Source of the DNA: an uncultured Arenicella sp.
GTDB taxonomy: Bacteria > Pseudomonadota > Gammaproteobacteria > Arenicellales > Arenicellaceae
Length of the DNA: 64,000 bases
NCBI GenBank assembly: GCA_938048185.1
Contig: CALIVT010000011.1
Coordinates: 42,882-106,881 of the forward strand
Direction: 5' to 3'
In this document: positions 3,029 through 52,807 of the stretch, one piece after another
Layout of the letters: each line of letters opens with the position of its first letter
How positions within the stretch are numbered: the first letter of the stretch is position 1
Translations under genes and position numbers: made by a program
The notes under the pieces: model-generated
Told to the model about the DNA's origin: nothing
Database searches by the model: none
The model's input: the letters and a program-made list of their open reading frames with translations, nothing else

Positions 3029-3121
3029 GACAATGTCCTCTTTTTCTTCTATCGTTCTAAATTATCTAGCATGCTGCACGCGCAATTTTTTTTAACTATT
3101 TAGCGCGTATACGCTCTGCTT

Positions 3122-5125: not shown

Positions 5126-5130
5126 TTGAA

Positions 5131-5535: not shown

Positions 5536-5552
5536 AATCGTAGGCCCGATTT

Positions 5553-6452: not shown

Positions 6453-6500
6453 GGCGTATCTCGCTTAATGTTATTCTACTATTTTGATTATTACGTTGAT

Positions 6501-8654: not shown

Positions 8655-8681
8655 AGCGACTCGATCCGATTTACAAAGCCG

Positions 8682-9377: not shown

Positions 9378-9527
9378 ATTTCGTGCCTAGCCCCAGATAT
9401 AAACCCAAATAACCGCTTGAATAACTGCGCAACCTCACCGGCGTAAGGTTTTGCTCTATTTACTCGATTGTGTGTTATAGATCGCCGACTCAGTGTCCAG
9501 ATTGCGACATTTACTTACACAGTCAAA

Positions 9528-28630: not shown

Positions 28631-29107
28631 ATGATTGCGAACACGAAACACCAAACCGTGCTGTCGGCTATTGAAGCCAATCAACATTTGGAGGGCGCCA
28701 TGCTGCCGATCCTTCATCAAATACAACACGACCTTGGACACATCCCCAGCGAACATGTGATTGATATTGCACAAGCGCTGAATGTATCGCGTGCCGAAGT
28801 GCACGGCGTAATCAGTTTTTATCATTCCTTTACAACGTCGCCTAAGGGCAAGCATGTAATCGAGGTGTGCCGAGCCGAGTCATGTCAGGCCAAAGGCGGT
28901 CGCGCAATCGAAGCGGCGGTTAAAGCCAAGCTTGGAATTGATTTCGAGCAAACGACTGACGACGGAGAAATCACGCTCGAGCCGGTTTACTGCTTAGGCA
29001 ATTGTGGTTGCTCGCCCGCTGTTAAAATCAACTCAGATGTGTATGGCCGAGTCACTACCGACAGCGTTGAAAACTTAATCGACGGCTTACTCACAGGGCA
29101 GCACTAA
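28631..29107 (+). CDS. fdsG: NAD-dependent formate dehydrogenase gamma subunit (NuoE-like)
   Basis: LPILHQIQ, SRAEVHGVISFYH, VCRAESCQA, VYCLGNCGCSP. Confidence 0.95.
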   Translation: MIANTKHQTVLSAIEANQHLEGAMLPILHQIQHDLGHIPSEHVIDIAQALNVSRAEVHGVISFYHSFTTSPKGKHVIEVCRAESCQAKGGRAIEAAVKAKLGIDFEQTTDDGEITLEPVYCLGNCGCSPAVKINSDVYGRVTTDSVENLIDGLLTGQH

Positions 29108-30660
29108 TGACTATTAAAGTATTTATACCGCAAGACTCAAGCGCGATTTCGGTAGGCGCGAATCAGGTCGCGGCGAAGCTCAGTGAACAGACTGGCATTG
29201 ACCTTATTCGTAATGGCTCACGTGGTTTGTTTTGGCTGGAGCCCATGATCGAAATTGAAACCGACGCAGGGCGAGTCGCCTATGGCCCGGTGACTGTGAA
29301 CGATATTGAACCGCTGCTAGAGCAAGGTTTGTTAGCAGGCGAACAACGACACCCATTATGCCTCGGACTGACAGAAGAAATTCCGTTTTTGAAAAATCAG
29401 CAACGCCTGACCTTCGAACGCGCGGGTGTTATCGACCCTGCAAGTTTAGACGACTATAAAGCGCACTCGGGTTACCAAGGTTTAGAGCGCGCGCTCACCA
29501 TGAGTAGCCAAGCCTGTGTGGATGAAGTCAAAGGATCTGGCTTGCGTGGCCGAGGTGGTGCAGCCTTTCCAACCGGCATTAAGTGGCAGACCGTACACGA
29601 CGTACCGGGCGAGAAAAAATACATCGTTTGTAATGCCGATGAAGGCGACTCGGGCACCTTCGCTGACCGTCTACAAATGGAAGCCGACCCATTCGGTTTG
29701 ATCGAGGGCATGACCATTGCCGCCATCGCCGTGGGCGCGGACCAGGGTTACATCTACCTACGTGAAGAATACCCGCACGCTCATGCCATGTTAAACAATG
29801 CAATTGACTCAGCAATAGCGGCTAACTTACTCGGCGAGAATATTTTAGACAGTGGCAAAACCTTTAACCTAGAAGTACGACTCGGCGCTAAGTCTTATAT
29901 CTGTGGCGAGGAAACCGCGCTATTAGAGAGCCTAGAAGGCAAACGCGGTGTGGTGCGCGCTAAACCGCCGCTACCAGCAATAGAAGGCTTATTTGGCAAA
30001 CCCACCGTGGTGAACAACGTTCTATCGTTGTCGACCATTCCGACTATTTTTGCCAAAGGCGCTGAATACTACGCCAGCTTTGGAATGGGCCGTTCACGCG
30101 GCACCATGCCGTTTCAGCTAGCAGGCAATCTTAAGCAAACAGGTTTAGTAGAGTTGGCATTTGGCATTACTTTGAATGGCTTACTAAACGACTTTGGTGG
30201 CGGCTCAGCCACCGATAAACCATTACGCGCAGTGCAATGCGGTGGCCCCTTGGGGACGTATTTACCAGAATCGCAATGGGGTATCCAAATGGATTACGAA
30301 GCGCTTGCTGGCATCGGCGGCGTTTTAGGCCATGGAGGTGTGGTCGCCTTTGACACCAGCGTCGACATGTCAGAGCAAGCCAGTTTTTCAATGGAATTTT
30401 GCGCTGAAGAATCTTGCGGCAAGTGCACGCCCTGCCGAGTCGGCGCAATACGCGGCGTAGAGACCATCGAAAAAGTTCGCAACGATGATGACCGCGACGC
30501 CAACCTCGTACTATTAAATAGCCTTTGCAACACGATGGAGTCTGGGTCCTTGTGTGCCATGGGCGGCATGACCCCATTTCCAGTCAAGAGTGCGTTAGAG
30601 CACTTCTCGGAAGACTTCTATCAACCAGCCGGCAGCACTAAATCAGGTGAGCAATCATGA
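29107..30660 (+). CDS. fdsB: NAD-dependent formate dehydrogenase beta subunit (NuoF-like)
   Basis: RNGSRGLFWLEP, SGLRGRGGAAFPTG, CNADEGDSGTF, YICGEET, ESCGKCTPCR, SLCAMG. Confidence 0.96.
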   Translation: MTIKVFIPQDSSAISVGANQVAAKLSEQTGIDLIRNGSRGLFWLEPMIEIETDAGRVAYGPVTVNDIEPLLEQGLLAGEQRHPLCLGLTEEIPFLKNQQRLTFERAGVIDPASLDDYKAHSGYQGLERALTMSSQACVDEVKGSGLRGRGGAAFPTGIKWQTVHDVPGEKKYIVCNADEGDSGTFADRLQMEADPFGLIEGMTIAAIAVGADQGYIYLREEYPHAHAMLNNAIDSAIAANLLGENILDSGKTFNLEVRLGAKSYICGEETALLESLEGKRGVVRAKPPLPAIEGLFGKPTVVNNVLSLSTIPTIFAKGAEYYASFGMGRSRGTMPFQLAGNLKQTGLVELAFGITLNGLLNDFGGGSATDKPLRAVQCGGPLGTYLPESQWGIQMDYEALAGIGGVLGHGGVVAFDTSVDMSEQASFSMEFCAEESCGKCTPCRVGAIRGVETIEKVRNDDDRDANLVLLNSLCNTMESGSLCAMGGMTPFPVKSALEHFSEDFYQPAGSTKSGEQS

Positions 30661-33557: not shown

Positions 33558-34368
33558 ATCAAAAGCGTCAGGTTCAGTCGGCGGCAACGCGATACTTGAC
33601 GGCGTTGAACAACGCTCGGTCGAGGTTCGCCACGCCGAGCATCTACAAAGCGCTGAAACCGACTTGGTGGCACAGGAAGTGCCGGTGGCCATTGCCTATA
33701 ACGGCGAAAGCCACGCGGTAATGATGGCCAGCCCAATCGATCTGCATGACTTTGCGATTGGTTTCAGCATTAGTGAGCGCATTGTTGATTCCAAAAGCGA
33801 TATTCGCGCGGTTGAGATTCGACGCGCCAGGCAAGGCATCACGCTCCAATTACAGATTAAGCCAAGCTTAATGAAGCGCCTTGACGGCAAGCGTCGTCAA
33901 CTGAGTGGCCGCTCCGGCTGTGGCGTATGCGGTATTACGGATTTGGCCGCGGCTATTCCGAGTATTACCCCTCTGCCAGACTCAACATTACCAAGCCACA
34001 CGGTGATCGATTTGGCCGTCAAATCGATGCAAGAAGTACAAGCCTTGCAACAACAATGCGGTGCAGTGCATTGCGCGGCCTTATTCTCTGCAAGCGGTGA
34101 ACTAATAGCGTGGCGCGAAGACGTAGGGCGACATAACGCCTTGGACAAGTTAATTGGCAACCAAATCGACACACTAAGCCGTGAGCAGTTCTTTGTTATG
34201 TCTAGCCGCGCCAGCCATGAATTAATTGCCAAAGTTGCGATTAGCGGTGTCGGCACCTTAGTCACCGTATCAGCGGCTACATCCTTAGCGATCGATTTGG
34301 CGGAGAAAGCAAACCTAAATTTAGTTGGCTTTGTACGTGAATCGCGTCAGATTATTTACGCGAGTTAA
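33535..34368 (+). CDS. fdhD: Formate dehydrogenase sulfurtransferase FdhD/FdsC
   Basis: EVPVAIAYNG, GRSGCGVCG, GAVHCAA, EDVGRHNALDKLIG, SSRASHELI. Start codon uncertain. Confidence 0.95.
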   Translation: MKPKNQPKSKASGSVGGNAILDGVEQRSVEVRHAEHLQSAETDLVAQEVPVAIAYNGESHAVMMASPIDLHDFAIGFSISERIVDSKSDIRAVEIRRARQGITLQLQIKPSLMKRLDGKRRQLSGRSGCGVCGITDLAAAIPSITPLPDSTLPSHTVIDLAVKSMQEVQALQQQCGAVHCAALFSASGELIAWREDVGRHNALDKLIGNQIDTLSREQFFVMSSRASHELIAKVAISGVGTLVTVSAATSLAIDLAEKANLNLVGFVRESRQIIYAS

Positions 34369-34388: not shown

Positions 34389-36347
34389 TTAAAGTACCAA
34401 TTGCAAAACCGTTTTCAGCGGTTCGAGATGCTCTTCGTAATTGCGCCACTGATCCATCCCGCTGGTGTAAATTGGTTGCCGAACTTGCTCTGAACTTGGC
34501 GTTCTAACCGCTCTTTTATTTTCATGAAAATCCACACACGCCTGTTCGAAAGGCAAACCGCAGTAGTCTAAAATTCGACGCACTTGCGTTTCTAAATCTA
34601 AAATCACATCTTCATGCTGCACTCGCAAGACTCTACCAGGCAGCACGTCATCCCAGTGTTGCATGGTGTCGACATAAGCGCAGTAGTATTCACCGATGGT
34701 TTCTAAGCTATACGAAAATTCCTGGCCTTCAGCAAAAAGTTGCTTAAAACCGCTGAAGCAACAGGCCATTGGTTCACGCCGAGCATCAATTATTTTCGCG
34801 TTCGGCAACATCAAATGAATCAAGCCAATGTGTCTGAAGTTGTTGGGCATTTTATCGATAAAGAACGCCCCACCTCGCCGGTGGCTGCGGGTGTCTTCAA
34901 TGTATTGTTGGCCAAGATTTATAAACCCTTGCTCGGGCAAATCAAGCAGCACTGATGGGTATCGCGGGGTATCACCGACCAAATGCCGACCATTGAGGCG
35001 ATGCGCCATGCTGATAACGTTAGCAAGCTCCAGCGTGCCGTCGACTTGAGAATGGGACGCTAAAATTTGTTCCAGCAAGGTTGAGCCTGCGCGCGGCAAA
35101 CCAACAATAAAAATTGGGTCTTGCGCAGTGTGCCCATACGATGAACGTGCCTTAAAGAACGTCTTATCAAAATGCTGCTTTTGGATGTTTAAACCATCGT
35201 TTATCAGCGTCGCGTCATACTTTAATTCATTCGCCTTTAGCTCGTTTCCACGCCGATAATAATCGAATGATTGCGTGTATTCGCATCGGTCTTCATACGC
35301 TTTACCTAAAGCAAAACGAATTTGCACTTGGTTGATATCATCGATATCGGAGTTGTCTTCATATGACCGCATCGCCTCGATTTCAGCGTCACTGAACGAG
35401 TAGGTTTTAAGATTAGCAAGGCTCCAATAAGCGTCACCGAACCCAGGTTGCGCCTCATACGCCGCTTGATAGGCATTAATAGCGGCCGCCAGCTCGCCAG
35501 AGGTTTTCAAAGCATGCCCAAGCGCCACCTGCACCGCCGCATTGTGGGGTTGCTTGGCGATTACATTGCGGTACGATCGTGTCGCCGCTGAGTAGTCGCC
35601 CACGGCTTGTAACGCATTGCCTAAACTTACCTCAAAACTGGGATTGGGGTCGGTATCAAATAAAATTTTAGCCTGCGCCAATGCCTTATCAAATTTTTGC
35701 CGTCGCTGCAGTACCTCCACATAATCTACGCGCGCTCGCAGGTAGTTTGGTTTAAATTCTAAACACTTCTCTAGTAGAAACTCGGCGTCATCCAAAATTT
35801 TAAATTTAGTTCCAAGTTCGGCCAGTAAGCGCATAGCTTCTGGATGGTGCGGCACGCGCTTTAAGAATTGGCGGCATAAGGTCTCGGCTTTATGCAGCTT
35901 GTTTTGATGAATCAGGCTGCTAACCGACACCAGCTCCGGCGGCAAGCTTTGCAACCACTTAAATTGCCGAGACGCTTCGTCGGCTCCGGGATAGTCGGAC
36001 AGTTGAGCTAGGGCATGCCACGCGCCGTGCAGCGCAGGGTTTATTGATACGGCTTTTTCGAACGCGACAATCGCCCGCTCAGTTTGACCCAAAGCTTGAT
36101 AGTTATATGCGGTTTCTTGTAAAGCATGAGTATGCATTGGGTCTATGCCTTGCAAACGTGTCAAAACCTTTAACGCAGACTTATGGTCACCCAGCTTACG
36201 TTCGCACACCGCCAGTAAGTAGAGTGCCTCTACGTGTTCGTTCGATTGATCGAGCAGTTCAGTAACTAAGACGCGCGCGGCCGCGAATTCACCACTACGA
36301 ATGTGTGCTTTTGCGTTCGCTACTTTAATGTTTAACTCGTTAGTCAA
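34389..36347 (-). CDS. TPR-repeat protein fused to a PAPS-dependent sulfotransferase domain
   Basis: N-terminal TPR-like helical repeats; 5'-PSB motif IVGLPRAGSTLLEQIL; FIDKMPNNF; RREPMACCFS; RTPSSEQVRQPIY. Confidence 0.92.
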   Translation of the reverse strand: MTNELNIKVANAKAHIRSGEFAAARVLVTELLDQSNEHVEALYLLAVCERKLGDHKSALKVLTRLQGIDPMHTHALQETAYNYQALGQTERAIVAFEKAVSINPALHGAWHALAQLSDYPGADEASRQFKWLQSLPPELVSVSSLIHQNKLHKAETLCRQFLKRVPHHPEAMRLLAELGTKFKILDDAEFLLEKCLEFKPNYLRARVDYVEVLQRRQKFDKALAQAKILFDTDPNPSFEVSLGNALQAVGDYSAATRSYRNVIAKQPHNAAVQVALGHALKTSGELAAAINAYQAAYEAQPGFGDAYWSLANLKTYSFSDAEIEAMRSYEDNSDIDDINQVQIRFALGKAYEDRCEYTQSFDYYRRGNELKANELKYDATLINDGLNIQKQHFDKTFFKARSSYGHTAQDPIFIVGLPRAGSTLLEQILASHSQVDGTLELANVISMAHRLNGRHLVGDTPRYPSVLLDLPEQGFINLGQQYIEDTRSHRRGGAFFIDKMPNNFRHIGLIHLMLPNAKIIDARREPMACCFSGFKQLFAEGQEFSYSLETIGEYYCAYVDTMQHWDDVLPGRVLRVQHEDVILDLETQVRRILDYCGLPFEQACVDFHENKRAVRTPSSEQVRQPIYTSGMDQWRNYEEHLEPLKTVLQLVL

Positions 36348-36395
36348 TTTAAAACGTCGATCGAATTTACGATAAGGCGTCTGGTTTTATAGCAT

Positions 36396-36426
36396 AAAAA
36401 AGAGGCGGCATCTTAGATGCCGCCTC
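36396..36426 (-). terminator. Intrinsic terminator downstream of the TonB-dependent receptor
   Basis: Perfect 11-bp stem GAGGCGGCATC-NNN-GATGCCGCCTC followed by T6 on the minus strand. Confidence 0.9.
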
Positions 36427-36457
36427 GGATCAATCTGCCATCACTCTCGCGCTTCGC

Positions 36458-38875
36458 CTAGTAGTCGTAACTCACTCTAATGCCAATGGTTCGCGGCCGA
36501 ATCGGGTTAATTCGAAAGATCAAGTCGGGGGCGCCTATGTCTAACTGACCGCGTTCATCGCTTAAATTATCGACGTACAAGCTGCCATTCCAATTGCCCA
36601 TTCTCGCGCCAATAGACGCATCGACTTGCGTATAACTATCTAATGGAAAACGCGCGATTTCAACCAAGCTTGAAAATCGATCATCCGTATATTTAACCAC
36701 CGTTTGAGCGTAGCCGGAAAAGCCTGCAAACTCCTGCTCATAGCGCGCGCCCAGGGTCCATTGCGTCTCGGGTGCGAACGGTAACTCCGACCCTGCGGGG
36801 CTAATATTAGTAATGGTCGGCGGCAACTCAACTAGCTCGGAGTCAATGTAACTAAACGAGCCAAAGACACTTAAAGCGTCGGTTGGCGCCCACGTCAAAT
36901 CCAGCTCTAGACCTTGCACCTCAGCGTCACCAACGTTGTCGAAAAACGACGAATTATCGATTGAAAAATCGAGAACACCTTGCTGTAAATCAGTAAAGTC
37001 GGTGTAATACACCGCGCCATTAAGACGCACGGTGTTATCGGCAAATTGGGTCTTCCAACCAAGTTCATAACTGTTTACGTTATCACTCTCAAAAAAGAAC
37101 GGAATGTTAACTGCGCCACTGCCGCCGCCGCCATTGCGATTAAAACCGCCCGAACGGAAACCTTCTGAATACGTGGCGTACAACAACACATCATCGCTTG
37201 CATTCCAGCTCACGTTTAGTTTGAAAATGGTATCCGATAACTCCGTGGGTGTTTGCCCAGCAAGAATTTGATCGACGTTATTTCCAAACGGACCGGGTGT
37301 GCGAAAGTTAAAGCTAGATTGCCCGCGCAAACCTATATCAATGCTGTATCTGCGCGCGCCAAGCGTCGCGGTTACGGTATCGGATACTTTATAAGCGAGT
37401 GAGCCAAAGAACGACAACTCTTCGCGATCACTTAAGAAATCATTGAAGAATGTAACACCCGGGGCACGCACATTGGGGTCCGACGCAAAGGCATCAGGGA
37501 TTGGTAAGTTTGGTTGAAAACCGACTAGGGTCGAGGCTGGGTAGGTAAAGTCACTGCGTTCAATAGTTTGCTGATCGTCATAATAAACACCCCCAATAAA
37601 ACTTAGCTGCCGATCACTGTCGGTAGCAATTCGAACCTCGTGTACCGAACGCTCAGTCTCGAAGAACGAGGCCGTGAACAACGCCGGGCTTCCGCAGCTA
37701 TCGTACCCTGGGGTACAAATATAATACGGGATAAACGGCCCATTATTCGCGTACCCGGTGTAGTCAGTTTGGCCTTCGAACGTGCGCTCGGTATAGGAAC
37801 CGTTATAGACTAAATCTAGATCGCCTAGCGCACCGTTTACCGTGAGTGACACCAAATCTACCTCGTCTTCACCGAAATCACGTGTAAAGGTTTGCACATT
37901 TAGCTCATCACCGGGGCTAACGTCAGGTTCGAAATCAAAAATACCTTCGGTATCTAAGCTTTGACTTACAACTTGAAGTGTCGCATCCCAGTTGTCATTA
38001 ATTTGGCCTTTGATACTTGCTCTAAAACCGGTGTATTCAGCGTCGTTGAAGTCATCTTCAACAAGCGCCGAGTTTTCTGCGGTGGCTCGAGTGCTGGGCA
38101 CCGTACCACCAAAACCTGGATTACTTAATGGAATTTGACGAGTAGCGGCGATGTTGTCAATGTAGCCACCTTGATCCGAATTATAGACGGCGATGCGCGC
38201 GGCAAGCTTATCATCCACTAAGGGGAAATTGACGTAGCCTTCTACGCTTAAACTGCCTTCACCACCCGAAGTATCAGAGACATCAACCGTGACACCGACG
38301 CTAAATTCGTTGAACTCAGGTTTATTGCTTATAAGGCGTAAGGTGCCTGCCTGCGAACTCGCACCGAACAAGGTGCCCTGAGGGCCTTTAAGAACCTCGA
38401 TACGCCCTAGATCGGTGGCATACAAGTCTATATTACGGCCTGCATACGAAATTGGCGTTTCATCCAGATAGGTCGCGACGCTGGGTTCAGACCCTAGGCT
38501 CGCGATTCTCACGGCCGTTCGACCAGGAGAGATGCCACGAATGAATACCTCTTGCTTACCGGGCCCCTGGCCCGAGGCATTTACGCCGGGTATCAACCCG
38601 ACATAATCATTGAAGCTGTCGATTCGCAACTCATCGAGTTTAGTCTCACTAATCGCTTGTAGGGCGATAGCAACATCTTGAGAGCTTTCTGAGCGCCGTG
38701 ACGCGGTAACCACAATTTCTTCTAGGCCAACGTCTTGGTCTGAATTTTCTTGTGCACTGGCACCAAGCGGAGTCGCAATCGCTAACGCGAGGATTGAGGC
38801 ACTTACCTCGCGGGCAATTCTTGAACGTCGAGGCGCATTAATAGCACTTGGGGAAATATCATTTAGCATCATCAA
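36458..38875 (-). CDS. TonB-dependent receptor
   Basis: Signal peptide, LEEIVVTASRR TonB box, RIEVLKGPQGTLFGASS plug motif, C-terminal RTIGIRVSYDY. Confidence 0.96.
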   Translation of the reverse strand: MMMLNDISPSAINAPRRSRIAREVSASILALAIATPLGASAQENSDQDVGLEEIVVTASRRSESSQDVAIALQAISETKLDELRIDSFNDYVGLIPGVNASGQGPGKQEVFIRGISPGRTAVRIASLGSEPSVATYLDETPISYAGRNIDLYATDLGRIEVLKGPQGTLFGASSQAGTLRLISNKPEFNEFSVGVTVDVSDTSGGEGSLSVEGYVNFPLVDDKLAARIAVYNSDQGGYIDNIAATRQIPLSNPGFGGTVPSTRATAENSALVEDDFNDAEYTGFRASIKGQINDNWDATLQVVSQSLDTEGIFDFEPDVSPGDELNVQTFTRDFGEDEVDLVSLTVNGALGDLDLVYNGSYTERTFEGQTDYTGYANNGPFIPYYICTPGYDSCGSPALFTASFFETERSVHEVRIATDSDRQLSFIGGVYYDDQQTIERSDFTYPASTLVGFQPNLPIPDAFASDPNVRAPGVTFFNDFLSDREELSFFGSLAYKVSDTVTATLGARRYSIDIGLRGQSSFNFRTPGPFGNNVDQILAGQTPTELSDTIFKLNVSWNASDDVLLYATYSEGFRSGGFNRNGGGGSGAVNIPFFFESDNVNSYELGWKTQFADNTVRLNGAVYYTDFTDLQQGVLDFSIDNSSFFDNVGDAEVQGLELDLTWAPTDALSVFGSFSYIDSELVELPPTITNISPAGSELPFAPETQWTLGARYEQEFAGFSGYAQTVVKYTDDRFSSLVEIARFPLDSYTQVDASIGARMGNWNGSLYVDNLSDERGQLDIGAPDLIFRINPIRPRTIGIRVSYDY

Positions 38876-41240: not shown

Positions 41241-41954
41241 TCAACCTTCATCAGTGTTATCAGGCGTCTTGTCTATGCTTAGCTTTAACGGCTCGCTGTC
41301 ACACCGAAAAAAGTAAACGGTGTTACTTGAAACATCATCCTGCGCTCGCTCTCGTTGCTGCTTAAAGCAAATATCGCCATTTGAAGAATTAGAACGTGCA
41401 TACAGATCACCTAAACGATCTTGGTAGCTTTCGAATTTACTGCGCCGACGAATATTCCTATTTCGATTAAAGGTTCGCGCAAAACGCTCGACCGCATGCG
41501 AATTCTGTTCAGCATAACGAACGGCTTCGCGTTTTGCGAACAATCTCAGACTGGCGAAGTCAAAGCTGATCGTGGGTTTTTGATCACCCTTGTCACTTGA
41601 GCCTTGAGTTTCATTCTCGCTAACGGGCTCGGCATTTGCTTGAGCGGGCTCGACCGGTTCACTCACTAACGAATCCTCGCCTTTCTCGATGCTGGTTGAG
41701 CCCAATGACGGGTCAGCCAAGTCAGGAATATTAGCAGGCAATGGTAACTGTTGATTCAGGCTTTGCTCAAACGTCTCTACTTCCTCTACTTTTTTCAGAA
41801 ACACCGTCAGACTCGCACCTCGGTCAACACTTGGGATCATCAATTTGGGAATACTCGGCAGTAAGAATGCCAACGCGATGTGTAAAAAAAGCGCCGCAGT
41901 CAGCGCTTTTTTGAAATGATGGTGCTGCTCGGAGATATCAGCAGTAAGCTGCAT
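41241..41954 (-). CDS. Hypothetical membrane-anchored protein (TonB-like N-terminal anchor and acidic/Pro linker)
   Basis: ALTAALFLHIALAFLL TM segment with conserved-looking His, E/P-rich linker, C-terminal domain with two Cys. No family recognised. Confidence 0.55.
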   Translation of the reverse strand: MQLTADISEQHHHFKKALTAALFLHIALAFLLPSIPKLMIPSVDRGASLTVFLKKVEEVETFEQSLNQQLPLPANIPDLADPSLGSTSIEKGEDSLVSEPVEPAQANAEPVSENETQGSSDKGDQKPTISFDFASLRLFAKREAVRYAEQNSHAVERFARTFNRNRNIRRRSKFESYQDRLGDLYARSNSSNGDICFKQQRERAQDDVSSNTVYFFRCDSEPLKLSIDKTPDNTDEG

Positions 41955-42039: not shown

Positions 42040-42654
42040 CTACTTCGGCCTACGAGCAAAAAGTTGCTCACCAAGATCGGAGTATTTTGCCCCACCTAAA
42101 CGAGACAACGGGTTCAAGCCAGGTGCGTCTAATTGAAAGCGCCCCTTCTCATGCGGTACCACTAAGTCGTCATTGACCTCAAGCTTAATAATTTCACCGT
42201 AGATTACGGCTTGCGGAACTGCGCCAACCTCGTCAATACGATACAACTCGCAGGCCATAGCCACGTCGCAGCCAGCAATGCGCGGCAAACTGAAACCTTC
42301 AAATTCAGCTAAGTCTAAGCCGGCAACATCAATTTCTGACTCACCATGAGCAAAGGTTCCTGACGTTGCGTTCACCTGATCTAGGTGGCGAGCACTTGGA
42401 ATATGCACAACGAACTTCTTGCGTTCGCGGATATTAACGCGAGTGTCTTTTTCATATTCGGCGTCTTTCTTACCGATTGACATGATCAATAACGGAGGAT
42501 CGCTCGCGATGCCAGTGAAAAACGAGAACGGAGCAACATTGTATGAAGCATCTCCGTTGTCGGACAGCACCCACGCAATAGGCCGAGGGATAATTGTCTC
42601 AACCATTGCGCCGTAACGCTGATTGGGGGTCATTTTTTTAAAATCTAATTGCAT
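42040..42654 (-). CDS. Flavin reductase family protein (DIM6/NtaB-like)
   Basis: PRPIAWV, NVAPFSFF, KDTRVNI, PLSRLGG. Start 42654 or 42678. Confidence 0.9.
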   Translation of the reverse strand: MQLDFKKMTPNQRYGAMVETIIPRPIAWVLSDNGDASYNVAPFSFFTGIASDPPLLIMSIGKKDAEYEKDTRVNIRERKKFVVHIPSARHLDQVNATSGTFAHGESEIDVAGLDLAEFEGFSLPRIAGCDVAMACELYRIDEVGAVPQAVIYGEIIKLEVNDDLVVPHEKGRFQLDAPGLNPLSRLGGAKYSDLGEQLFARRPK

Positions 42655-42694
42655 GTCTTTAGTAATCCGATACCACACGGTTGAGAATAGCTAC

Positions 42695-43273
42695 TCAATT
42701 GAGATAACTTTCTTTAAAGTGACGCCGACACAGTGAGACATAACGTTCATTGCCGCCAATCTCAACTTGCGACCCTTGGCGCATCGCCTTGCCACTTGCA
42801 TCAACCCGTACCACCATATTAGCTTTTGAGCCGCAATGACAGATGGTTTTCAGCTCTTGCAATACGTCGGCCCACGCTAACAGCGCTTTACTACCGGGAA
42901 AGAGTTGCCCTTGAAAGTCAGTTCGAATACCGTAACACAACACCGGTATGGATAAGGTGTCGCATACATCGCTAAGTTGCCAAACTTGCTCTTCCGACAA
43001 AAACTGTGCCTCGTCAACTAATAAACAGTCTATGTGTTTCGCTTGGTGCCTTAATCGAACATGCTCTAATAAATCATCATCAGCGTGAAATAAGTCAGCC
43101 TCTTGCGACAAACCAATGCGCGAGCTGACCTTGCCTTGCCCATAACGATCGTCGAACGCCGCGGTCAGTAGCAGCGTATGCATACCGCGCTCGCGATAGT
43201 TAAAGCTCGATTGCAAAAGCGTGGTCGACTTGCCCGCGTTCATTGTTGAGTAATAAAAATACAACTTAGCCAC
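42695..43273 (-). CDS. tdk: Thymidine kinase
   Basis: [45 protein letters not shown]. Confidence 0.97.
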
Positions 43274-44258
43274 GATTACCTCCGCCGTGGTGCGTTTTGG
43301 AATTCAAAATCGTATTCATAAAACAATTTAGTACTCGCTCTGAGTCTACTTGTTTTGCCACCGCTATCGACGGGCGACCTTGCCAATGGTCAAACAACTC
43401 AGGCGAGGTTCGATCAAAGCGATCTAACACTAGCGCGCCAACAGCGACGCCATCATTCACCACTCGCGCCGGTCCTGAAACCAGTTCAAACGCCGAGCGC
43501 TCGACCAAGTAGGCCAGCGCACTGGCATCGTGCATCGCACACTGACGCTTACCTCCGTACTCCTTCGTGGTGCTATAAAAATCAATATAGTAACGACTGC
43601 TGTCCCAAATAAATTGGCCCATCGCACCGGCCGAATCGCGCAGCAACGCGAAATGTTCATCGGTTAACGGAACTTGCAGCGTCACGTCTAGCCCAATAAC
43701 AGCTAAAGGCCAATCATAGGCACAAACAACATCGGCCGCATGCGGGTCGTTGACGAAATTAGCCTCGGCCAGCGGAGTGACATTGCCAGGCACATCGAGC
43801 GCTCCCCCCATGACCACTAGCTCTTTCACTTTAGACGGCAAAGACGGGTCCAACATCACCGCTTGAGCGATGTTGGTCAGTGGGCCAATGGCGACTAGAC
43901 TCACCTCACCGGGCCGCTGATTTACGTTGCGAATAATAAATTCTGCGGCACTTTCATCACGCGCCACTGAACGCGGTGGCGGTAAATTAAGGTCACCCAT
44001 GCCGTCAGCACCGTGTACAAAATCGGGTGATGGCATGCGCGCTTGACTTAATGGCTCGGCAGCGCCCCTCGCCACTGGTATGTCGGCTCGGCTATAGTGT
44101 TCTAAGACGACAAGCGCGTTGCCAGTGGTAATATCCACGCTCGCATTACCAAACACCGTGGTTAAACCAAGTAAGTTGATGTCTGGATGACTAAGCGCGA
44201 AGGCGATCGCCTGTGCGTCATCTATACCCGGGTCGGTATCAAGAATTACGTTATGCAT
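43266..44258 (-). CDS. Nucleoside hydrolase (IUNH/Rih family)
   Basis: [32 protein letters not shown] (catalytic His retained). Confidence 0.95.
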
Positions 44259-44276
44259 AAAGTAGAATCAAATAGT

Positions 44277-45155
44277 TTAGACGTGCAAATCAGCCAGCCA
44301 CGGAATTGATGGGATAGCGCCTGCGCGAGTAACCGCTAGGCTGCCCGCTTGGCACGCTTGGTTTAACGCCGCTTGCTCACCCAAGCCGTTTATAAGCCCA
44401 GCCAAAAGATAACCAACAAAGGTATCGCCAGCACCGGTGGTATCGACCACCTCGAGAGTACTCGCGTTGGCGGCGAAGCGTTCGCCTTGATAAGCTGAGA
44501 TCGCGCCCTTGCTCCCAAGCGTAATGACCACTCGCGTATTCGGCAGGCGAGCCGATAGCGCGTTCATCGCGGCATCGATATCGTCTAATTCGCTAATCAT
44601 CTGCGCCTCAATCTGATTGACCACTAAGGTATCGAGCTGCGCAAGCGGTAAGTGGTTTATCGCCTGCGTCATCGGCGCAGGATTAAGTACGATCCTTAAA
44701 CCTTTAGCCTGACCCAGCTCAAATATTTGCTCAATCAAATTACATTCGTTTTGTAATAGTAGATAGTCGCCCACGCTTGCTTTTTCTAGCGCTGAGCGTA
44801 CCTTCGCTTTAATAAAGCCTTGGTTGGCGCCGCCGTGCAACACGATTGCATTTTCGCCCTGCGTGTCGACTTGAATGATTGCATGTCCGCTCGGCTCATC
44901 GCACAGCTCAATATGGTCAGCACCCACCGAATTCTCCAGTAGCAGTGCATGAGCCCATTCATCGGCTTTGTTCAAACGGCCAATATGCTGAACCGCGATA
45001 CCAGCTCGCGCTAGCGCAATTGATTGGTTTGCGCCCTTTCCGCCAAGCACAGTCTGTAGCGAGCCGCTAAGCAATGTCTCGCCGGGTTGCACAAAGTGAG
45101 GCACCTGATAAACATAATCAATGTTAATTGAGCCAACGTTATAGACAATCGTCAT
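44277..45155 (-). CDS. rbsK: Ribokinase
   Basis: GSINID, GGKGANQ, GGAN, LLQNE, NPAP, DTTGAGDTFVG PfkB signature. Confidence 0.92.
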   Translation of the reverse strand: MTIVYNVGSINIDYVYQVPHFVQPGETLLSGSLQTVLGGKGANQSIALARAGIAVQHIGRLNKADEWAHALLLENSVGADHIELCDEPSGHAIIQVDTQGENAIVLHGGANQGFIKAKVRSALEKASVGDYLLLQNECNLIEQIFELGQAKGLRIVLNPAPMTQAINHLPLAQLDTLVVNQIEAQMISELDDIDAAMNALSARLPNTRVVITLGSKGAISAYQGERFAANASTLEVVDTTGAGDTFVGYLLAGLINGLGEQAALNQACQAGSLAVTRAGAIPSIPWLADLHV

Positions 45156-46066
45156 TACTTCGCCAAACCTATTTCTTTTAAGCGTTGCTGTAAAAATTTA
45201 CCCGCGGTAATCGGTGCATATTGTCTTGGGTGGCGCGCGTCGATGCACTGCGGCAAACAATCAAGAGACACCTCGGGACTGGGGTGCATAAAAAACGGGA
45301 TAGAGTATCTACTAACACGTGCCTGGTTAGCCTTGGGGTTGACGACTCGATGTGTGGTCGAACGCAAGGTGTTGTTGGTAAGCCGTTGCAACATATCACC
45401 GACATTGCAAATGATAGTGCCCTCAATCATATTGATCGGTACCCACTCTCCCTGCTTGCTGAGTACCTCTAAGCCGTCTTGTTCCGAACCCGCAAGCAAT
45501 GTTAATAAGTTAATATCTTCATGAGCGGCTGCGCGTAAGTTCGGCAGCTCGCCGTCGAGAACAGGCGGATAATGCAATATTCTGAGAATAGCCTCACCAT
45601 GTTCGACTCGCGCGTTAAAGTAGTCGGCAGGCAAGCCCAGTATGGCGGCGAAAACGCGCAGCACTCGACGCGCTAAGTCGTCTAAGTCGGCATAGAGCGC
45701 CTCAAAAGTCTTTCGGAAATCATCATCACCCTCGGGCCATACATTCTGATCCAAATAGTCATGGTTCGCAGACTCGCGACCCACATGGAAGAACTCTTTC
45801 AAATCGCTGTGTGCGGCGCCTTTGGCTCTCTCAATACCGAACGGAATATAACCTCGAACTCGACCTTCGTAACGCAGCTTTTCGATGGTCGGCAGCGCGA
45901 AGAAACGCCGTGACGCCTGCCACGCTGACTCAATCAGTTGTGGGTCTAAGCCATGCCCGCTAATGCCAGCAAAGCCCCACTCTTGATACGCGGCCTTGAA
46001 GTCCGCTAAAAAGTGATCGCGGTCGGTGTCGAAACGCCGAATGTCTAAAATTGGGACGATGTGCAT
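45155..46066 (-). CDS. Isopenicillin-N-synthase-like Fe(II)/2OG dioxygenase
   Basis: DIOX_N-type N-terminus (WGFAGISGHG, FFALP, RGY), HED iron motif (AAHEDINLLTLL), THRVVNP, RYSIPFF. Confidence 0.93.
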   Translation of the reverse strand: MHIVPILDIRRFDTDRDHFLADFKAAYQEWGFAGISGHGLDPQLIESAWQASRRFFALPTIEKLRYEGRVRGYIPFGIERAKGAAHSDLKEFFHVGRESANHDYLDQNVWPEGDDDFRKTFEALYADLDDLARRVLRVFAAILGLPADYFNARVEHGEAILRILHYPPVLDGELPNLRAAAHEDINLLTLLAGSEQDGLEVLSKQGEWVPINMIEGTIICNVGDMLQRLTNNTLRSTTHRVVNPKANQARVSRYSIPFFMHPSPEVSLDCLPQCIDARHPRQYAPITAGKFLQQRLKEIGLAK

Positions 46067-46099: not shown

Positions 46100-47353
46100 C
46101 TATAGCGGCGCGATTGCTTGCATAAGCAAACCACAAAGCCAGGCGCCATAGGTACCGAGCACATAACCAAATACGGCCAGCAACACGCCAACAGGCGCTA
46201 ACGCCGGGTGAAACGCAGCGGCTAATACCGGCGCTGAAGCCGCGCCACCAATATTCGCTTTGCTGCCAATGGCGAGAAAAAAATAAGGTGCACGAATAAT
46301 CTTTGCAACGATCACGAGTATAACAATATGAAAAAGCATCCAAATACCGCCGACCACAAACAAACCAGGATGATCACCGAGCGCCCGAATATCCATTTTC
46401 ATACCAATGGTCGCGACCAAGATAAAAATAAATATTGTGCCTATTTTTGACGCCCCTGCGCCCTCGTACTCGCGCACGTTAGTAAAAGACAAAATCACCC
46501 CTATGGTAGTCGCTAGCACGATTAGCCAGAAGAACTTTGAGGTTAAACTGAACTTAGCCAGCTCCGGGGCATTTGTTTGAATCGACGGCGCGATAATATC
46601 CGCCATAAAGTGCGAAAACCCGGTCGCCGCAAACGCGATTCCCAACATCACCATTAAATCAGACGTTGTCGGGTTTCTGGCAATACGCTTGCCGTAATGC
46701 TCCATTTTCTCTTGCAGACGCTGAACCGAGCTAGCGTCGGCGTTAAAGAAACGGTCAATCTTGTCTTTCTTGCCAATGCCGATCAGTAAAAAGACCATCC
46801 ACACTTCAGCCACGATAATGTCAACCGTGATCATTATGCCGAATAGCGTCTCTGATGGCTTAAAGACTTCATACATCGCAGCCTGATTCGCACCACCGCC
46901 GATCCAGCTGCCCGCGACCGTTGTCATGCCACGCCAAACGGCTTCAGGGCCCGCACCGCCAACTAATTCAGGGTTGAACGCAGAGGTAATTAGAATAGCA
47001 ACTGGCCCGCCAATAATGACACCAAGCGTCGCAGTAAAGAACATAACCAGTGGTTTGTAACCAAGCTTGGCAATTTCTTTTAAATCAACACTCAACGTCA
47101 ACAGGATTAGGCAGGCGGGTAATAAATAGCGCGACGCCATGTAATAGAGTTGCGAATTTTCGCCATCAACAATACCAAATGTGTTGAGCAAAGACGGTAG
47201 GAAATAACACAGCAATAACATGGGCACTATGCTGTAAAACTTCTTTAGGCTAGGGTTAGCGCTATTTGACGTTTTAAAGACTAAAGCCAATATTGCCAAC
47301 AAAAGGCCAAGTATGACCGCGTCGTTCGTGATTAAGGCTGTAGAATGTTGCAT
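46100..47353 (-). CDS. DUF819 family polytopic membrane protein (putative transporter)
   Basis: LLPACLILLTL, AGSWIGGGANQAA, SKANIGGAASAP; about 11 hydrophobic segments. Start taken at ATG 47353. Confidence 0.85.
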   Translation of the reverse strand: MQHSTALITNDAVILGLLLAILALVFKTSNSANPSLKKFYSIVPMLLLCYFLPSLLNTFGIVDGENSQLYYMASRYLLPACLILLTLSVDLKEIAKLGYKPLVMFFTATLGVIIGGPVAILITSAFNPELVGGAGPEAVWRGMTTVAGSWIGGGANQAAMYEVFKPSETLFGIMITVDIIVAEVWMVFLLIGIGKKDKIDRFFNADASSVQRLQEKMEHYGKRIARNPTTSDLMVMLGIAFAATGFSHFMADIIAPSIQTNAPELAKFSLTSKFFWLIVLATTIGVILSFTNVREYEGAGASKIGTIFIFILVATIGMKMDIRALGDHPGLFVVGGIWMLFHIVILVIVAKIIRAPYFFLAIGSKANIGGAASAPVLAAAFHPALAPVGVLLAVFGYVLGTYGAWLCGLLMQAIAPL

Positions 47354-47500
47354 GCTTATAGTTAAGTTGTCTCGACGATTTAGAATAACGTAAGTCGACC
47401 TAGATGTGCCCATTTTTTAATAGCACGCAGCATAAACAAACTGGCAACCGAGCGCGTAGTTCTAACATTGCACTCAACAACACATTACTGGAAGGAAAAA

Positions 47501-48062
47501 ATGACGATTCGAAAGACTGTTTTACTCTGCTTTATGTGCATTTTTGATCGCGTGCACGTCCGTCGAACCAACGCAGAACCAATTTGAAGAAAGTAAGCAA
47601 CGCCAGTTTTTCGAAGGTTTAAAAAAACTATGCGGTAAACACTTCGAAGGCAAAATGACCTACCCTGAAGAAGGGCAAGACAGCTTCGCCGGTAAAGTTC
47701 TGGTCGCGCGCTTTATGGAGTGTGGTAATCCCGATATCAGAATTCCGTTTGACGTCGGCAAAGACACATCAAGAACATGGATTATCAGTCAAACAGCGAA
47801 CGGCCTGCAGCTTAAACACGACCACCGCCACGCGGACGGTACGCCGGATGAAATTAATATGTACGGCGGCTTAGCAAAAAGCGACGGCAGTCATTTATCC
47901 CAAGCCTTCTACGCCGACGCGCACACCGCAGCTATTATTCCCGCGGCGGCTACTAACGTATGGACGCTGTCGCTCAGCGCGGACGGACAAACGTTAACGT
48001 ACTATCTAGAGCGCAACGCGGCGCCGAGATTTAAAGCGGTTTTAAAACAAGTGAAAAATTAG
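47501..48062 (+). pseudogene. Lipoprotein gene with an apparent one-base frameshift in the signal peptide (or a sequencing error)
   Basis: RBS GGAAGG and ATG 47501 open a frame that stops after 28 codons. The 172-aa ORF from TTG 47544 with lipobox LIAC is in another frame. Removing one T at 47520-47523 gives MTIRKTVYSALCAFLIAC. Confidence 0.55.
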
Positions 48063-48064
48063 GT

Positions 48065-48613
48065 TTAGCTTTTCCATTTAGCCCAAGGGTTTGCTGAGCC
48101 CGACGATGTAGAAGGCTCTTTACTTGCTGAGGGCTCTTTACCCGCTGAGGGCTCTTTATTCGCTGAGGGCTCTTTACGTCCCCACGGGGATTGGTCGGAA
48201 GAAGGTTTCTTCTTGGCTGGCGTATCTCTGCGTGACTTTGTTTTCGCTTGCTTAAAAACCGGGCCAGAGATTGGATCGTCAAAGAACTCTCTGTCGCTCT
48301 CGGTGATGATCGCGGGTAACTGAGGCTCTAAACCATCAGCAAAGGTCCGCTCTCGGGGCGGCAGCTCGTGTTGCTCATCGTCGGGAATGGGTAATTGCTT
48401 GAACTTATACAAATAGAACGCTTCGGTTTTTTCTCTCGCCCACGCCGTTTTATGCAAAAACTTGTGGCTTGACGCGATGCTCGGCTTATTCTTGAAACAA
48501 TTTATATTCAACTGTGCTGCCAATACTTCCCAGCCATAATGCTCAACTAATTCGGTTACAAGCGCCTTTACGCCCACGCCATGCAGGGGGTTGTTTCGGT
48601 CTTGGTTTGTCAT
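48065..48613 (-). CDS. VF530/DUF2132 family putative DNA-binding protein with C-terminal repeat tail
   Basis: NNPLHGV...[10 protein letters not shown]...INCF...[21 protein letters not shown]. Confidence 0.88.
48108..48179. repeat. Four-copy 18-bp coding tandem repeat (KEPSA-type)
   Basis: GCTGAGGGCTCTTTANNN units at 48126, 48144 and 48162, plus a degenerate unit at 48108. Encodes [24 protein letters not shown]. Confidence 0.95.
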
Positions 48614-49138: not shown

Positions 49139-50485
49139 TCACCGATTTTCACGATAGCTTTTTTCCAACACCTGGATAACCGCCGCACCCCGAATAAGCT
49201 TAGCTTTACTTGCGCCCACGCCATAGATAGCAATGGGTGTCGCCCAATCGCTGTCTATGCTTAGGTCTAATAGATCCTCAGCGGATAAGGTCATGCGCCC
49301 CATGCGCTCAGTCAGCGGTATGTTTGTGCCGCCAACGCCGTCGTAGGCCCGATATACCACTTCTGTGCAGACTAACTGATCCGAGCGAAAGAAATCAAAG
49401 TCAAAGTTATAACCTTTGCCCGCATGCGTCACGACCCTGGCAACCGCGTGCTGAATTTCAGCGTTCGTTAAGTTTGGGCGCAACACAACAAACCCGTCGA
49501 CACTTAGGGTCTCGTCTAGGGTGCGAAAACGCAGGCCATCTTTGAGCGCTTCAAAAGTAACTCTATCACCCGCCCAATACTGCAGGTAACCCGACATTTC
49601 GCTTAACTTACTCTGCTCTTCACGCCGCCCAACAAACAAGGCCGCGTGAGGCCAATAGCCGGGTAAAAACAAATTGGTTAATGCTTGTCGATGACGCGTT
49701 ATAAAGATGTCCCCGGGCTCTAATATTGAAACTAATTGCTGGCGAATTGCAGCGGTCACCCGTTTAGTACGCGGCAACTTTATTTCTGCGACGGCGCGGC
49801 CGCTGTACTCAAGCATTGCGAACAGAGACTTCTGACGCGCGGAGGCGCCGCGCCTGCGCCACGAATGACGGCGAGCAAGAAACCACGCACCGAGATAGCG
49901 CCGCCAACTTAAATCGATATACCGCTCCTGCTTGGGTATTTGCAAAAATAGGTCTTCGAGGTCGGGCTGCCCGCTGATGGCCTGACCAATACGAGTTCGA
50001 TTTTTTTTGAAGGTCCGGTGAGCTTCGTGAATGCGAGTCGCATTCATGGGTGAGAACAATGCTTTATAAACCGCGGTGTATTGCTTGCGCTCTACTCTTA
50101 GGCTCGGAATTGACTCGTTTAATTTTCGCTGAATGTCGCTATGCGACGCGACTTTGGTGACCAAAAAACGATCCATCCGAACAATCGAACAAATAGCTGA
50201 GTATGCCATTAGGAAATACTGCCAATCGGAGTCGTTAATGAGCTTGCGAGTACCGCCGGTCTGATCAATAGTGGTGTTTACGATATCCCACAAATTATTG
50301 CGAAGCGTTAAAAATCGAGCAAACCAATAGCCAATTTCTTCGTCTTCCGACGGGCTAAAAATACCTCTACTCGCTATCTCGCTTAACCGCTCACGGCTCA
50401 TCGCGTCGTCGAACAGCCTTGCCAGCGCTAGATTGAGAGAGTTGAGCGCTCGCAGCTCGAGTTCGATTACTATCCGAGAATCCAT
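49139..50485 (-). CDS. YiiX/YebB-like permuted NlpC/P60 cysteine hydrolase with a large N-terminal extension
   Basis: LEPGDIFI, GYWPHAALFVG, YNFDFDF, LVCTEVVYRAY (His before Cys indicates the permuted order). Confidence 0.85.
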   Translation of the reverse strand: MDSRIVIELELRALNSLNLALARLFDDAMSRERLSEIASRGIFSPSEDEEIGYWFARFLTLRNNLWDIVNTTIDQTGGTRKLINDSDWQYFLMAYSAICSIVRMDRFLVTKVASHSDIQRKLNESIPSLRVERKQYTAVYKALFSPMNATRIHEAHRTFKKNRTRIGQAISGQPDLEDLFLQIPKQERYIDLSWRRYLGAWFLARRHSWRRRGASARQKSLFAMLEYSGRAVAEIKLPRTKRVTAAIRQQLVSILEPGDIFITRHRQALTNLFLPGYWPHAALFVGRREEQSKLSEMSGYLQYWAGDRVTFEALKDGLRFRTLDETLSVDGFVVLRPNLTNAEIQHAVARVVTHAGKGYNFDFDFFRSDQLVCTEVVYRAYDGVGGTNIPLTERMGRMTLSAEDLLDLSIDSDWATPIAIYGVGASKAKLIRGAAVIQVLEKSYRENR

Positions 50486-51718: not shown

Positions 51719-52807
51719 CTAAACGAAATAACGGGACGCAATTTCATTCGCAGCGGCCCGACTACGTTGATCGCCAGCATCGATCAAGTCGGCGTAAGTT
51801 ATTAATGGATGCGTAACTTGCGGACAAATATTTTTGTGCTCGGCCTTACCCCAAAATTTAGAAAACACATTTACTTTGGGTGCTGACTCGTCCATTCCAC
51901 GGTCTGCTTTGATAAAACGCATAGCGCGAATAAACTTCCATTGTTGCTGATCGCCAAGGTAGATTGACCCGGTTTCAGCTTGTTCAGACTCAATGTAACT
52001 GGCCGCCGCGAATTCGCCACCCAAGTGAACGTCATATTTGCTAAATTCACTGGATCGCCACCAATCTTTATCAGCCGTGTAGTACGGCCCCAAATATAGG
52101 CGCTTTTTTAACGTCGGGTATTGCTCTACCCATCGGCCGATCAACCGATGCCGGGCCCGCCACTCGCGCACCTTGGTGCGATTAGATTCAACAAAGTACC
52201 CGTTATCTTTTAAGTCTCTAAAGACGGTTCCACAAACGCCAAGGGCAACATTAGCGTATTCCGAAACGACGCGATAATTTTCGTTTAATAGACCTGGGTT
52301 CGCTAACAAGGCAAAAATGATTTGTAAATCAATCGGACTAAACGGTTTGGCCGGGCGGCTCAAGGCAATACCATCAGCGTGTGGCTGAGCATCGATAAAA
52401 ACAAACAACGGAGAAAGCTTTAAATAGGCGTTGCCACCGGCATCCAGATAATTTACGTTTAAGTCCCGCAAAAGCTTAGCCGAATCACCGTCAATTCGAT
52501 CAGCAATAAGGAGCGGAGTACGCCCCTCCGCCGCTGCCTGCAATTGCTTGACCATTGGCAAAAGAGTGTCTATATGAATTCCGTTCTTGATCTCACTAAT
52601 CAATTCTATTTGAGTACCTGCGAGACGAAACTTCATGTCCGGCCACAGGCCGGTACCGAGCACTGAGTTTACTTCGACTGTCTCTAAAGTTAATCCGGTG
52701 TGCGCGTGTAATGTTTCAATCGCTTTAGATGCGATTTTCTCTTCTAAGGACGCTATTGGTTTCATAGGCGCAATGATCTTAGTTTTTGCACGCAGATCCG
52801 CGAACAT
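51719..52807 (-). CDS. Type IV toxin-antitoxin AbiEi-family antitoxin-like protein
   Basis: NYLDAGGNAYL, HTH segment (ANVALGVCGTVFRDLKDNGYF), LIGRWVEQY, LGGEFAA, HPLITYADLIDAGDQR. Confidence 0.75.
   Translation of the reverse strand: MFADLRAKTKIIAPMKPIASLEEKIASKAIETLHAHTGLTLETVEVNSVLGTGLWPDMKFRLAGTQIELISEIKNGIHIDTLLPMVKQLQAAAEGRTPLLIADRIDGDSAKLLRDLNVNYLDAGGNAYLKLSPLFVFIDAQPHADGIALSRPAKPFSPIDLQIIFALLANPGLLNENYRVVSEYANVALGVCGTVFRDLKDNGYFVESNRTKVREWRARHRLIGRWVEQYPTLKKRLYLGPYYTADKDWWRSSEFSKYDVHLGGEFAAASYIESEQAETGSIYLGDQQQWKFIRAMRFIKADRGMDESAPKVNVFSKFWGKAEHKNICPQVTHPLITYADLIDAGDQRSRAAANEIASRYFV

Follow-up and report, generated by a model that had tools for sequence, protein, structure and literature searches.

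We analyzed a 64,000-nucleotide stretch of DNA from an uncultured Arenicella sp. (contig CALIVT010000011.1, positions 42,882 to 106,881; this whole stretch is called the window below) and found in it a block of closely spaced genes built on a conserved four-gene core: an Fe(II)/2-oxoglutarate (2OG) oxygenase, a ribokinase, an IU-type nucleoside hydrolase, and a thymidine kinase (Tdk). The gene context in the window and in its relatives supports the idea that the oxygenase acts on pyrimidine (deoxy)nucleosides. We tentatively read the block as an operon for the uptake, salvage, and catabolism of pyrimidine (deoxy)nucleosides in which the oxygenase would hydroxylate the 2' carbon of the deoxyribose. 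We give this reading, in which we infer the substrate and the regiochemistry, just under an even chance.

The block consists of six closely spaced genes on the minus strand, with an intergenic region upstream of them:

47354-47543: intergenic region between the DUF819 gene and the divergent gene at 47544-48062; presumed operon promoter region, by position only
46100-47353, minus strand: DUF819 membrane protein (Pfam PF05684, 1.2e-87; the mechanical open reading frame extends to 47413)
45155-46066, minus strand: Fe(II)/2-oxoglutarate oxygenase (Pfam DIOX_N, 2.1e-23, and 2OG-FeII_Oxy, 1.5e-21)
44277-45155, minus strand: ribokinase-like PfkB kinase (Pfam PfkB, 3.9e-41)
43266-44258, minus strand: IU-type nucleoside hydrolase (Pfam IU_nuc_hydro, 2.2e-88, 297 bits)
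42695-43273, minus strand: thymidine kinase (Tdk), with a GTG start (Pfam TK, 4.5e-53)
42040-42678, minus strand: flavin-reductase-domain protein (Pfam Flavin_Reduct, 2.6e-19)

Five of these genes, from the oxygenase to the flavin reductase, had been described in the first-pass annotation of this DNA. Our coordinates, strand, and Pfam matches agree with that description for each gene, as do the junctions between them, which can be read in the sequence. The stop codon of the oxygenase gene and the start codon of the kinase gene have one base in common (TAATG), the kinase and hydrolase genes are 18 nucleotides apart, and the GTG start of tdk, which is preceded by GGAGG, overlaps the hydrolase gene by 8 nucleotides. 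The flavin reductase open reading frame begins 16 nucleotides after tdk if a GTG is used, or 40 nucleotides after it if an ATG is used. The ATG (at 42654) is the likely start, giving a protein of 204 amino acids as in homologues. The DUF819 gene, absent from the first-pass annotation, lies 33 nucleotides upstream of the oxygenase gene on the same strand, and M21 at 47353, where homologues begin, is the probable start of the protein, which then has 417 amino acids. No terminator-like site or Rfam element was found interrupting the block. A scan for sigma-70 consensus sequences found no convincing minus-strand promoter-like site at the operon, and an Rfam search for riboswitches and leaders near it gave no match, the region at 47354-47543 being included in both. 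Because no minus-strand promoter consensus was found, the limits of the operon rest on gene spacing.

To place the block among its relatives, we collected at least 173 loci with a gene related to that of the oxygenase (designated here by L numbers), searched their flanks with six proteins of the window, and built a simple neighbor-joining tree of the oxygenases. The proportions in this collection are biased, and the counts are those among the matches listed. In the clade that contains the window, every sampled locus has nucleoside or pyrimidine genes linked to the oxygenase gene. The order oxygenase, PfkB kinase, hydrolase, Tdk was found in at least ten loci (the window, L001, L081, L083, L085, L167, L169, L171, L172, and L173), with oxygenases 57-80% identical to that of the window and gaps between genes of -20 to +174 nucleotides. 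The stop/start overlap between the oxygenase and kinase genes occurs in the window and at L081, L085, L167, L169, and L170. The genes that flank the cassettes are unrelated from locus to locus and include those for an H+-pyrophosphatase, DNA polymerase I, TonB receptors, and others. The same gene order thus recurs among unrelated flanking genes, and the linkage of the oxygenase to nucleoside genes, seen in independent lineages, is beyond chance. The first-pass annotation had singled out such linkage in homologues as a test of its proposal, and the linkage was found both in this clade and in a distant clade that carries tdk and the gene for a NupC-family transporter (see below).

The genes at the two ends of the cassette vary. 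The upstream transporter is a DUF819 protein in the window and L081, and a TsgA-family MFS protein in L167 and L169, as expected for a module that acts on an imported compound. The DUF819 protein of the window is 90% identical over 417 amino acids to the product of the gene in the same position at L081/L082. DUF819 falls in the CPA/AT transporter superfamily (PMC8396727), and the protein is a putative importer of the substrate that we infer for the operon. At the downstream end, a flavin reductase gene follows tdk in only four of the ten sampled cassettes (window, L081, L083, and L001) and is missing from L085, L167, L169, L171, L172, and L173. The flavin reductase, counted in the first-pass annotation as a member of the operon, is adjacent to it as described and is a lineage-specific appendage outside the conserved core.

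Several loci carry other combinations of genes. L168 has the oxygenase and hydrolase genes only. A HAD gene upstream of the oxygenase gene at this locus was considered as a possible nucleotidase and rejected; it encodes a type II haloacid dehalogenase. The order at L170 is PreA, a beta-ureidopropionase-like protein, an NCS1 permease, dihydropyrimidinase, Upp, oxygenase, PfkB kinase, and a frameshifted hydrolase. In L084, a relative of L170, the oxygenase gene comes directly after the dihydropyrimidinase gene (TIGR02033, 586 bits) of a set of reductive pyrimidine-degradation genes. These degradation genes lie beside the oxygenase gene at both loci, and the bases handled are therefore pyrimidines. 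The nucleoside hydrolase gene is in two fragments in L170 (7535-8496) and is missing from L084. A cytochrome P450 gene comes next in both (8136-9386 in L084 and 8493-9704 in L170); its best NCBIfam match, below the cut-off, is to a cyclodipeptide-synthase-associated type.

A second group of tdk-linked oxygenases, which takes in a metagenome-assembled genome of the Steroidobacteraceae, is 50-55% identical to the window oxygenase and no nearer to it than the stand-alone clades are. In four loci of this group (L080, L137, L141, and L143) the oxygenase gene and tdk are 3-21 nucleotides apart, and in two others (L130 and L159) the gene for a NupC-family CNT nucleoside transporter lies between them. 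Tdk and NupC as partners point to deoxy-pyrimidine nucleosides. Two other genes were seen near these pairs. In L080 and L141, the gene after tdk encodes a TonB-dependent receptor. A gene for a homologue of DDAH_eukar-type dimethylarginine dimethylaminohydrolase (L137 2115-3089; L141 882-1856, minus) is divergent from the oxygenase-tdk pair and beside plsY. It was considered as a sign that the substrate might be an arginine derivative; the gene is confined to one sublineage and divergently transcribed.

The partner proteins were assigned by comparison with known families. The kinase scored 217.8 bits against the NCBIfam ribokinase model TIGR02152, which is under the cut-off of 299.65 and about three times the score for the next PfkB subfamily, and its PDB matches at E ≤ 1e-30 are ribokinases without exception. 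The translation contains the motifs GSINID, GGKGANQ, and TGAGD. Asn11, Asp13, and GGKGANQ make up a ribose-type motif unlike that of other PfkB subfamilies. We assigned the ribose-contacting residues from those that we take to be the corresponding residues of E. coli RbsK, and the Asn of GSINID is presumably the residue that separates ribokinase from the deoxyribokinase of Salmonella. Tdk scored 312.5 bits against NCBIfam NF003300 (cut-off 195) and shares 77-87% identity with its counterparts in the other cassettes.

The best PDB matches of the hydrolase are the plant enzymes NRH3 and NRH1 (8e-72), and alignment to them shows a DTDPGIDD Ca2+ motif (of the DxDxxxDD type), AEAN, and an HD catalytic pair. 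Among NCBIfam models, the hydrolase comes nearest to RihC, UriH, and RihA, and its score falls short of every cut-off (for RihC, 210 against 382). By family and motifs, the protein is assigned as a Ca2+-type ribonucleoside hydrolase of the IU family. The first-pass annotation had assumed that IU-type hydrolases barely cleave deoxynucleosides, and a review bears this out: turnover of 2'-, 3'-, or 5'-deoxynucleosides is very low, and strict specificity for ribose is common to all characterized isozymes (PMC8910321).

The oxygenase passes the Pfam gathering thresholds comfortably (83.7 bits against 27.3, and 77 bits against 23) and is, by these domain matches, an Fe(II)/2OG oxygenase of the IPNS-like/DOXC class (DIOX_N + 2OG-FeII_Oxy). 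No NCBIfam model matched it, and the family is without a curated name. The best PDB match is 3OOX, the Caulobacter crescentus protein CC_0200 (E 2.4e-78), which also aligns well in Foldseek (TM 0.87, 43% identity); the AF2 model of the oxygenase is confident overall, with a pLDDT of 82 and a pTM of 0.86. A review from 2023 (PMC10467617) still lists the function of CC_0200 as undefined. By both sequence and fold, the nearest characterized relative is thymine 7-hydroxylase (T7H) of Neurospora crassa (5.8e-40; Foldseek E 4e-27, TM ~0.83, 31-33% identity), which outranks IPNS-like, EFE-like, and plant enzymes. The closest named relatives among the matches listed are from Arenicella. A metagenome scan gave, among the matches listed, mostly relatives at 47-54% identity and few close ones, and a plasmid collection contained only paralogues at 33-35% identity and no orthologues.

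The catalytic residues of the oxygenase correspond to those of T7H. The iron ligands H182/D184/H239 align with H214/D216/H271 of T7H, and R253/S255, the RxS motif for the 2OG C5-carboxylate, align with R286/S288. The iron triad and the 2OG ligands (R253, S255, R162, and Y166) are invariant across 169 family members, except for one Ala at S255, and are among 86 positions that are at least 97% invariant. Because the conserved positions are invariant across linked and unlinked oxygenases, the two groups probably catalyze the same reaction.

The substrate pocket is different. We transferred the substrate contacts reported for T7H (PMC4787775) to the oxygenase through the alignment. Arg190, Phe292, and Arg328 of T7H have conserved equivalents in the oxygenase family (F259 for Phe292). 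Tyr217 is replaced by Ile185 in 169 of 169 sequences, and the aromatic sandwich on the base has no counterpart. The polar contacts to the uracil ring are likewise missing: Glu122 and Asn294 are replaced by His94 and His261, both invariant across the family, and Asn87 is replaced by Val70 in the window oxygenase, by Ala in most members, and by Ser in others. Since these replacements are strongly conserved, we describe the oxygenase as a relative of T7H with a different pocket and not as its orthologue.

Taken together, the parts suggest the following route. Thymidine and deoxyuridine would be imported through the DUF819 protein, or through TsgA-type MFS or NupC-type carriers in relatives, and Tdk would trap a portion as dTMP or dUMP for DNA synthesis. 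The oxygenase would convert the rest to ribothymidine or uridine by hydroxylation at C2'. The Ca2+-dependent hydrolase, for which the hydroxyls of the ribose are essential, would then free thymine or uracil and ribose, and ribokinase would convert the ribose to ribose 5-phosphate. The base would pass to Upp or to reductive pyrimidine degradation, the genes for which are beside the cassette in one relative. The common denominator of the linked contexts is pyrimidine nucleosides, and the deoxy forms specifically: Tdk and NupC handle thymidine and deoxyuridine, ribosides and ribose are dealt with by the hydrolase and ribokinase, and uracil and thymine are the substrates of Upp and the reductive pathway. 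We favor conversion of deoxynucleosides to ribonucleosides because it is one reaction that would join all of these parts. In addition, since IU-type hydrolases are poor on deoxynucleosides, a step that restores the 2'-hydroxyl would make the hydrolase and ribokinase useful for them.

This salvage route is essentially the one proposed in the first-pass annotation. Its nucleoside linkage, its premise about the hydrolase, and its fungal precedent stand, and the 2'-hydroxylation chemistry is a proposal drawn from them. It is quite possible, if short of probable, that the widespread 3OOX oxygenase family as a whole supplies the genes that have been missing for pyrimidine deoxynucleoside 2'-hydroxylase (EC 1.14.11.3). 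Our literature searches turned up no account of a bacterial deoxynucleoside hydroxylase, of the function of the 3OOX family, or of a gene for the fungal 2'-hydroxylase, and we found the combination of oxygenase, ribokinase, hydrolase, and Tdk described nowhere.

Several observations count against this reading. The hydrolase and ribokinase alone are an ordinary pair for ribonucleoside catabolism, and the oxygenase could serve another step. The gene context fits hydroxylation at C2' or C1', and nucleoside or nucleotide substrates, alike; it is likewise compatible with oxidation of the base or demethylation of a modified nucleoside. We looked for RNA sequencing runs, and only DNA runs from marine metagenomes contain the operon sequence. 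In addition, approximately 150 of the 173 orthologues sampled have the invariant pocket residues of the others and no nucleoside neighbor within 8-10 kb. The co-occurrence with nucleoside genes that the first-pass annotation anticipated therefore holds in the window clade and in the distant clade, but not in most of the sampled loci. The stand-alone orthologues are mostly from Lysobacterales, and also from Idiomarinaceae, Reinekea, and Hahella. Neighbors were clustered in the high-GC Lysobacterales loci after the open reading frames had been passed through a filter on GC content at third codon positions (GC3), and the neighborhood in Xanthomonas and Lysobacter is one of housekeeping genes: trpA, accD, a glmM-like gene, the oxygenase gene, and tpiA/nuo. 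In L071 (8515-10927) and L013 (8554-10927) the oxygenase gene is directly downstream of the gene for the glmM-like PGM/PMM mutase, and in L013, where the two open reading frames overlap, they may be co-transcribed.

The stand-alone loci raise the possibility that the oxygenase has a housekeeping role unrelated to nucleosides, and that it lies next to nucleoside genes through inherited synteny, with no function in common. Most orthologues are alone in such neighborhoods, the pocket is invariant in linked and unlinked members, which makes one common function probable, and both linked clades could have kept an ancestral adjacency of the oxygenase gene and tdk. However, the linked loci include three types of context (hydrolase, kinase, and Tdk; NupC and Tdk; Upp and the reductive pathway) among different flanking genes, and they have stop/start overlaps and exchangeable transporters. 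Neutral synteny seldom survives at 50-57% protein identity. On balance, we consider a role unrelated to nucleosides unlikely.

Other chemistry on the same class of substrates would account for much of the context. The oxygenase could attack C1', yielding free base and 2-deoxyribonolactone, or hydroxylate dTMP or dUMP, with the hydrolase and ribokinase serving ribonucleosides in parallel. This would account just as well for the links to Tdk, NupC, Upp, and the pyrimidine-degradation genes. Stubbe reportedly described a deoxyuridine 1'-hydroxylase activity in Rhodotorula in 1985, and the distant matches of the oxygenase include AdaV (E 2.7e-13), an Fe/2OG enzyme. We regard this alternative as rather improbable: it leaves the translational coupling of the oxygenase to ribokinase unexplained, no cassette contains a lactonase, a deoxyribonate-pathway gene, or a nucleotidase, and IU hydrolases are inactive on nucleotides.

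About as improbable, in our view, is that the oxygenase strips a blocking modification (2'-O-methyl or N-methyl) for the hydrolase, such that the operon would recycle modified nucleosides derived from RNA. Like 2'-hydroxylation, this would restore a substrate for a ribose-specific hydrolase, with ribokinase taking the ribose, and the DIOX_N class does include O-demethylases (PDB matches 9VGI and 5O7Y). It gives no role to thymidine kinase, though, which is the commonest partner and the sole partner in the distant clade, and such substrates would be minor next to deoxynucleosides derived from DNA.

The thymine hydroxylase that the first-pass annotation had offered as an alternative, that is, a bacterial T7H-like enzyme that oxidizes the thymine or uracil freed by the hydrolase, is weakened, and we rate it slightly less probable again: T7H remains the closest characterized homologue, Arg190, Phe292, Arg328, and the 2OG ligands are conserved, and the Upp and pyrimidine-degradation links would suit a base as substrate, but four of six T7H substrate-contact positions are replaced, the called neighbors of the 18 linked loci include no iso-orotate decarboxylase-like gene, thymine needs no prior oxidation where the reductive pathway adjoins, and Tdk and NupC act on nucleosides rather than bases.

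The remainder of the window contains genes of several other kinds. Three of them near the operon are also found near related cassettes: one for a 237-amino-acid protein without a Pfam match (41241-41954; also at L081 and L083), one for a Peptidase_C92 amidase (49139-50485; also at L081 and L085), and one for an AbiEi_2 regulator-like protein (51719-52807; also at L081 and L083). These flanks probably reflect synteny of the lineage and not shared function. At L081, the operon has the same beta-lactamase, PDZ, and TonB-receptor genes around it. The gene at 48065-48613 (minus strand) encodes a VF530-domain DNA-binding protein whose C-terminal tail consists of KEPSA-like repeats. By eye, a 652-amino-acid open reading frame within 34389-38875 (minus strand) has TPR repeats and a sulfotransferase-like C-terminus, and an adjoining 805-amino-acid open reading frame resembles a TonB-dependent receptor.

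Farther from the operon, the region at 1493-11233 (minus strand) contains a corrinoid-dependent quaternary-amine demethylation cluster, with an MttB-family methyltransferase (749 bits), RACo activase, a pterin-binding methyltransferase, MTHFR, DUF1638, a B12-binding corrinoid protein, and an HD protein. A gene for a TauD oxygenase of the gamma-butyrobetaine-hydroxylase-like type comes next. The gene content of this region suggests catabolism of betaine, carnitine, or butyrobetaine. The region at 29107-34368 encodes a NuoF-like subunit, a 966-amino-acid molybdopterin formate-dehydrogenase-like subunit, and FdhD, is preceded by a PBP_like regulator-type gene (27438-28502), and looks like a cluster for a soluble NAD-linked formate dehydrogenase.

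If the oxygenase is indeed a 2'-hydroxylase, a function would be assigned to a large conserved family for which a crystal structure has been available since 2010, and bacteria would share a reaction that is known only from an enzyme activity of fungi. Bacteria would then have an oxygen-dependent, direct conversion of deoxyribonucleosides to ribonucleosides that needs neither a phosphorylase nor DeoC, and marine and soil Gammaproteobacteria would have an added catabolic route for nucleosides derived from extracellular DNA. An enzyme that puts a 2'-hydroxyl on deoxynucleosides would also be of interest for biocatalysis of nucleoside analogues. If the chemistry is different, the context still narrows the search for the family's substrate to pyrimidine (deoxy)nucleosides. 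Either way, the operon provides a sharp and inexpensive biochemical test for a large orphan oxygenase family.

The closest known system is the thymidine salvage pathway of fungi (Neurospora and Rhodotorula), whose members are a 2'-hydroxylase, a nucleoside hydrolase, thymine 7-hydroxylase, and iso-orotate decarboxylase. Thymidine kinase is, to our knowledge, absent from this fungal route. The pathway runs via the ribonucleoside of thymine and a hydrolase step (PMC4787775), and a 2OG-dependent pyrimidine deoxyribonucleoside 2'-hydroxylase activity in Rhodotorula is attributed to Wondrack et al. 1978 in a passage of PMC2655668; the precedent cited in the first-pass annotation thus exists, to the extent of that passage for the 2'-hydroxylase. 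The window system resembles the fungal one in having a 2OG oxygenase beside a ribonucleoside hydrolase step that would yield thymine and ribose. It differs in being bacterial and operon-encoded, in including Tdk and ribokinase, and in that its 2'-hydroxylase is a tentative assignment. No iso-orotate decarboxylase is among the called neighbors at the linked loci, and the base apparently goes to Upp or reductive degradation.

Among individual enzymes, N. crassa T7H (EC 1.14.11.6; PDB 5C3O-5C3S) has the same fold as the oxygenase, including the C-terminal lid helix, and differs in the thymine contacts Tyr217, Glu122, Asn294, and Asn87, where the oxygenase has Ile, His, His, and a small residue. 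Caulobacter CC_0200, a structural-genomics protein, is of the same family as the oxygenase. The Fe/2OG halogenases AdaV and AdeV belong to the same broad superfamily (E ~1e-13). They act at C2' of 2'-deoxyadenosine monophosphate and would be a precedent for abstraction of the C2' hydrogen of a deoxyribose; they are very distant from the oxygenase, halogenate a nucleotide, and are found in a secondary-metabolite context.

Compared with the canonical Deo route (DeoA/DeoD, DeoB, and DeoC), the 64-kb window has no phosphorylase or aldolase among its annotated open reading frames, and no deo, udp, cdd, or upp gene was found among those of at least 180 amino acids, a result that describes the window and not the content of the whole genome. 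A Rih-type hydrolase with ribokinase is the ordinary bacterial route for ribonucleosides, Tdk is the ordinary means of thymidine salvage, and the window shares both. What sets it apart from the ordinary Rih/ribokinase route is that the oxygenase gene and tdk are joined into the hydrolase/ribokinase module. The parts of the operon are ordinary members of their families, and it is their combination for which we found no published description.

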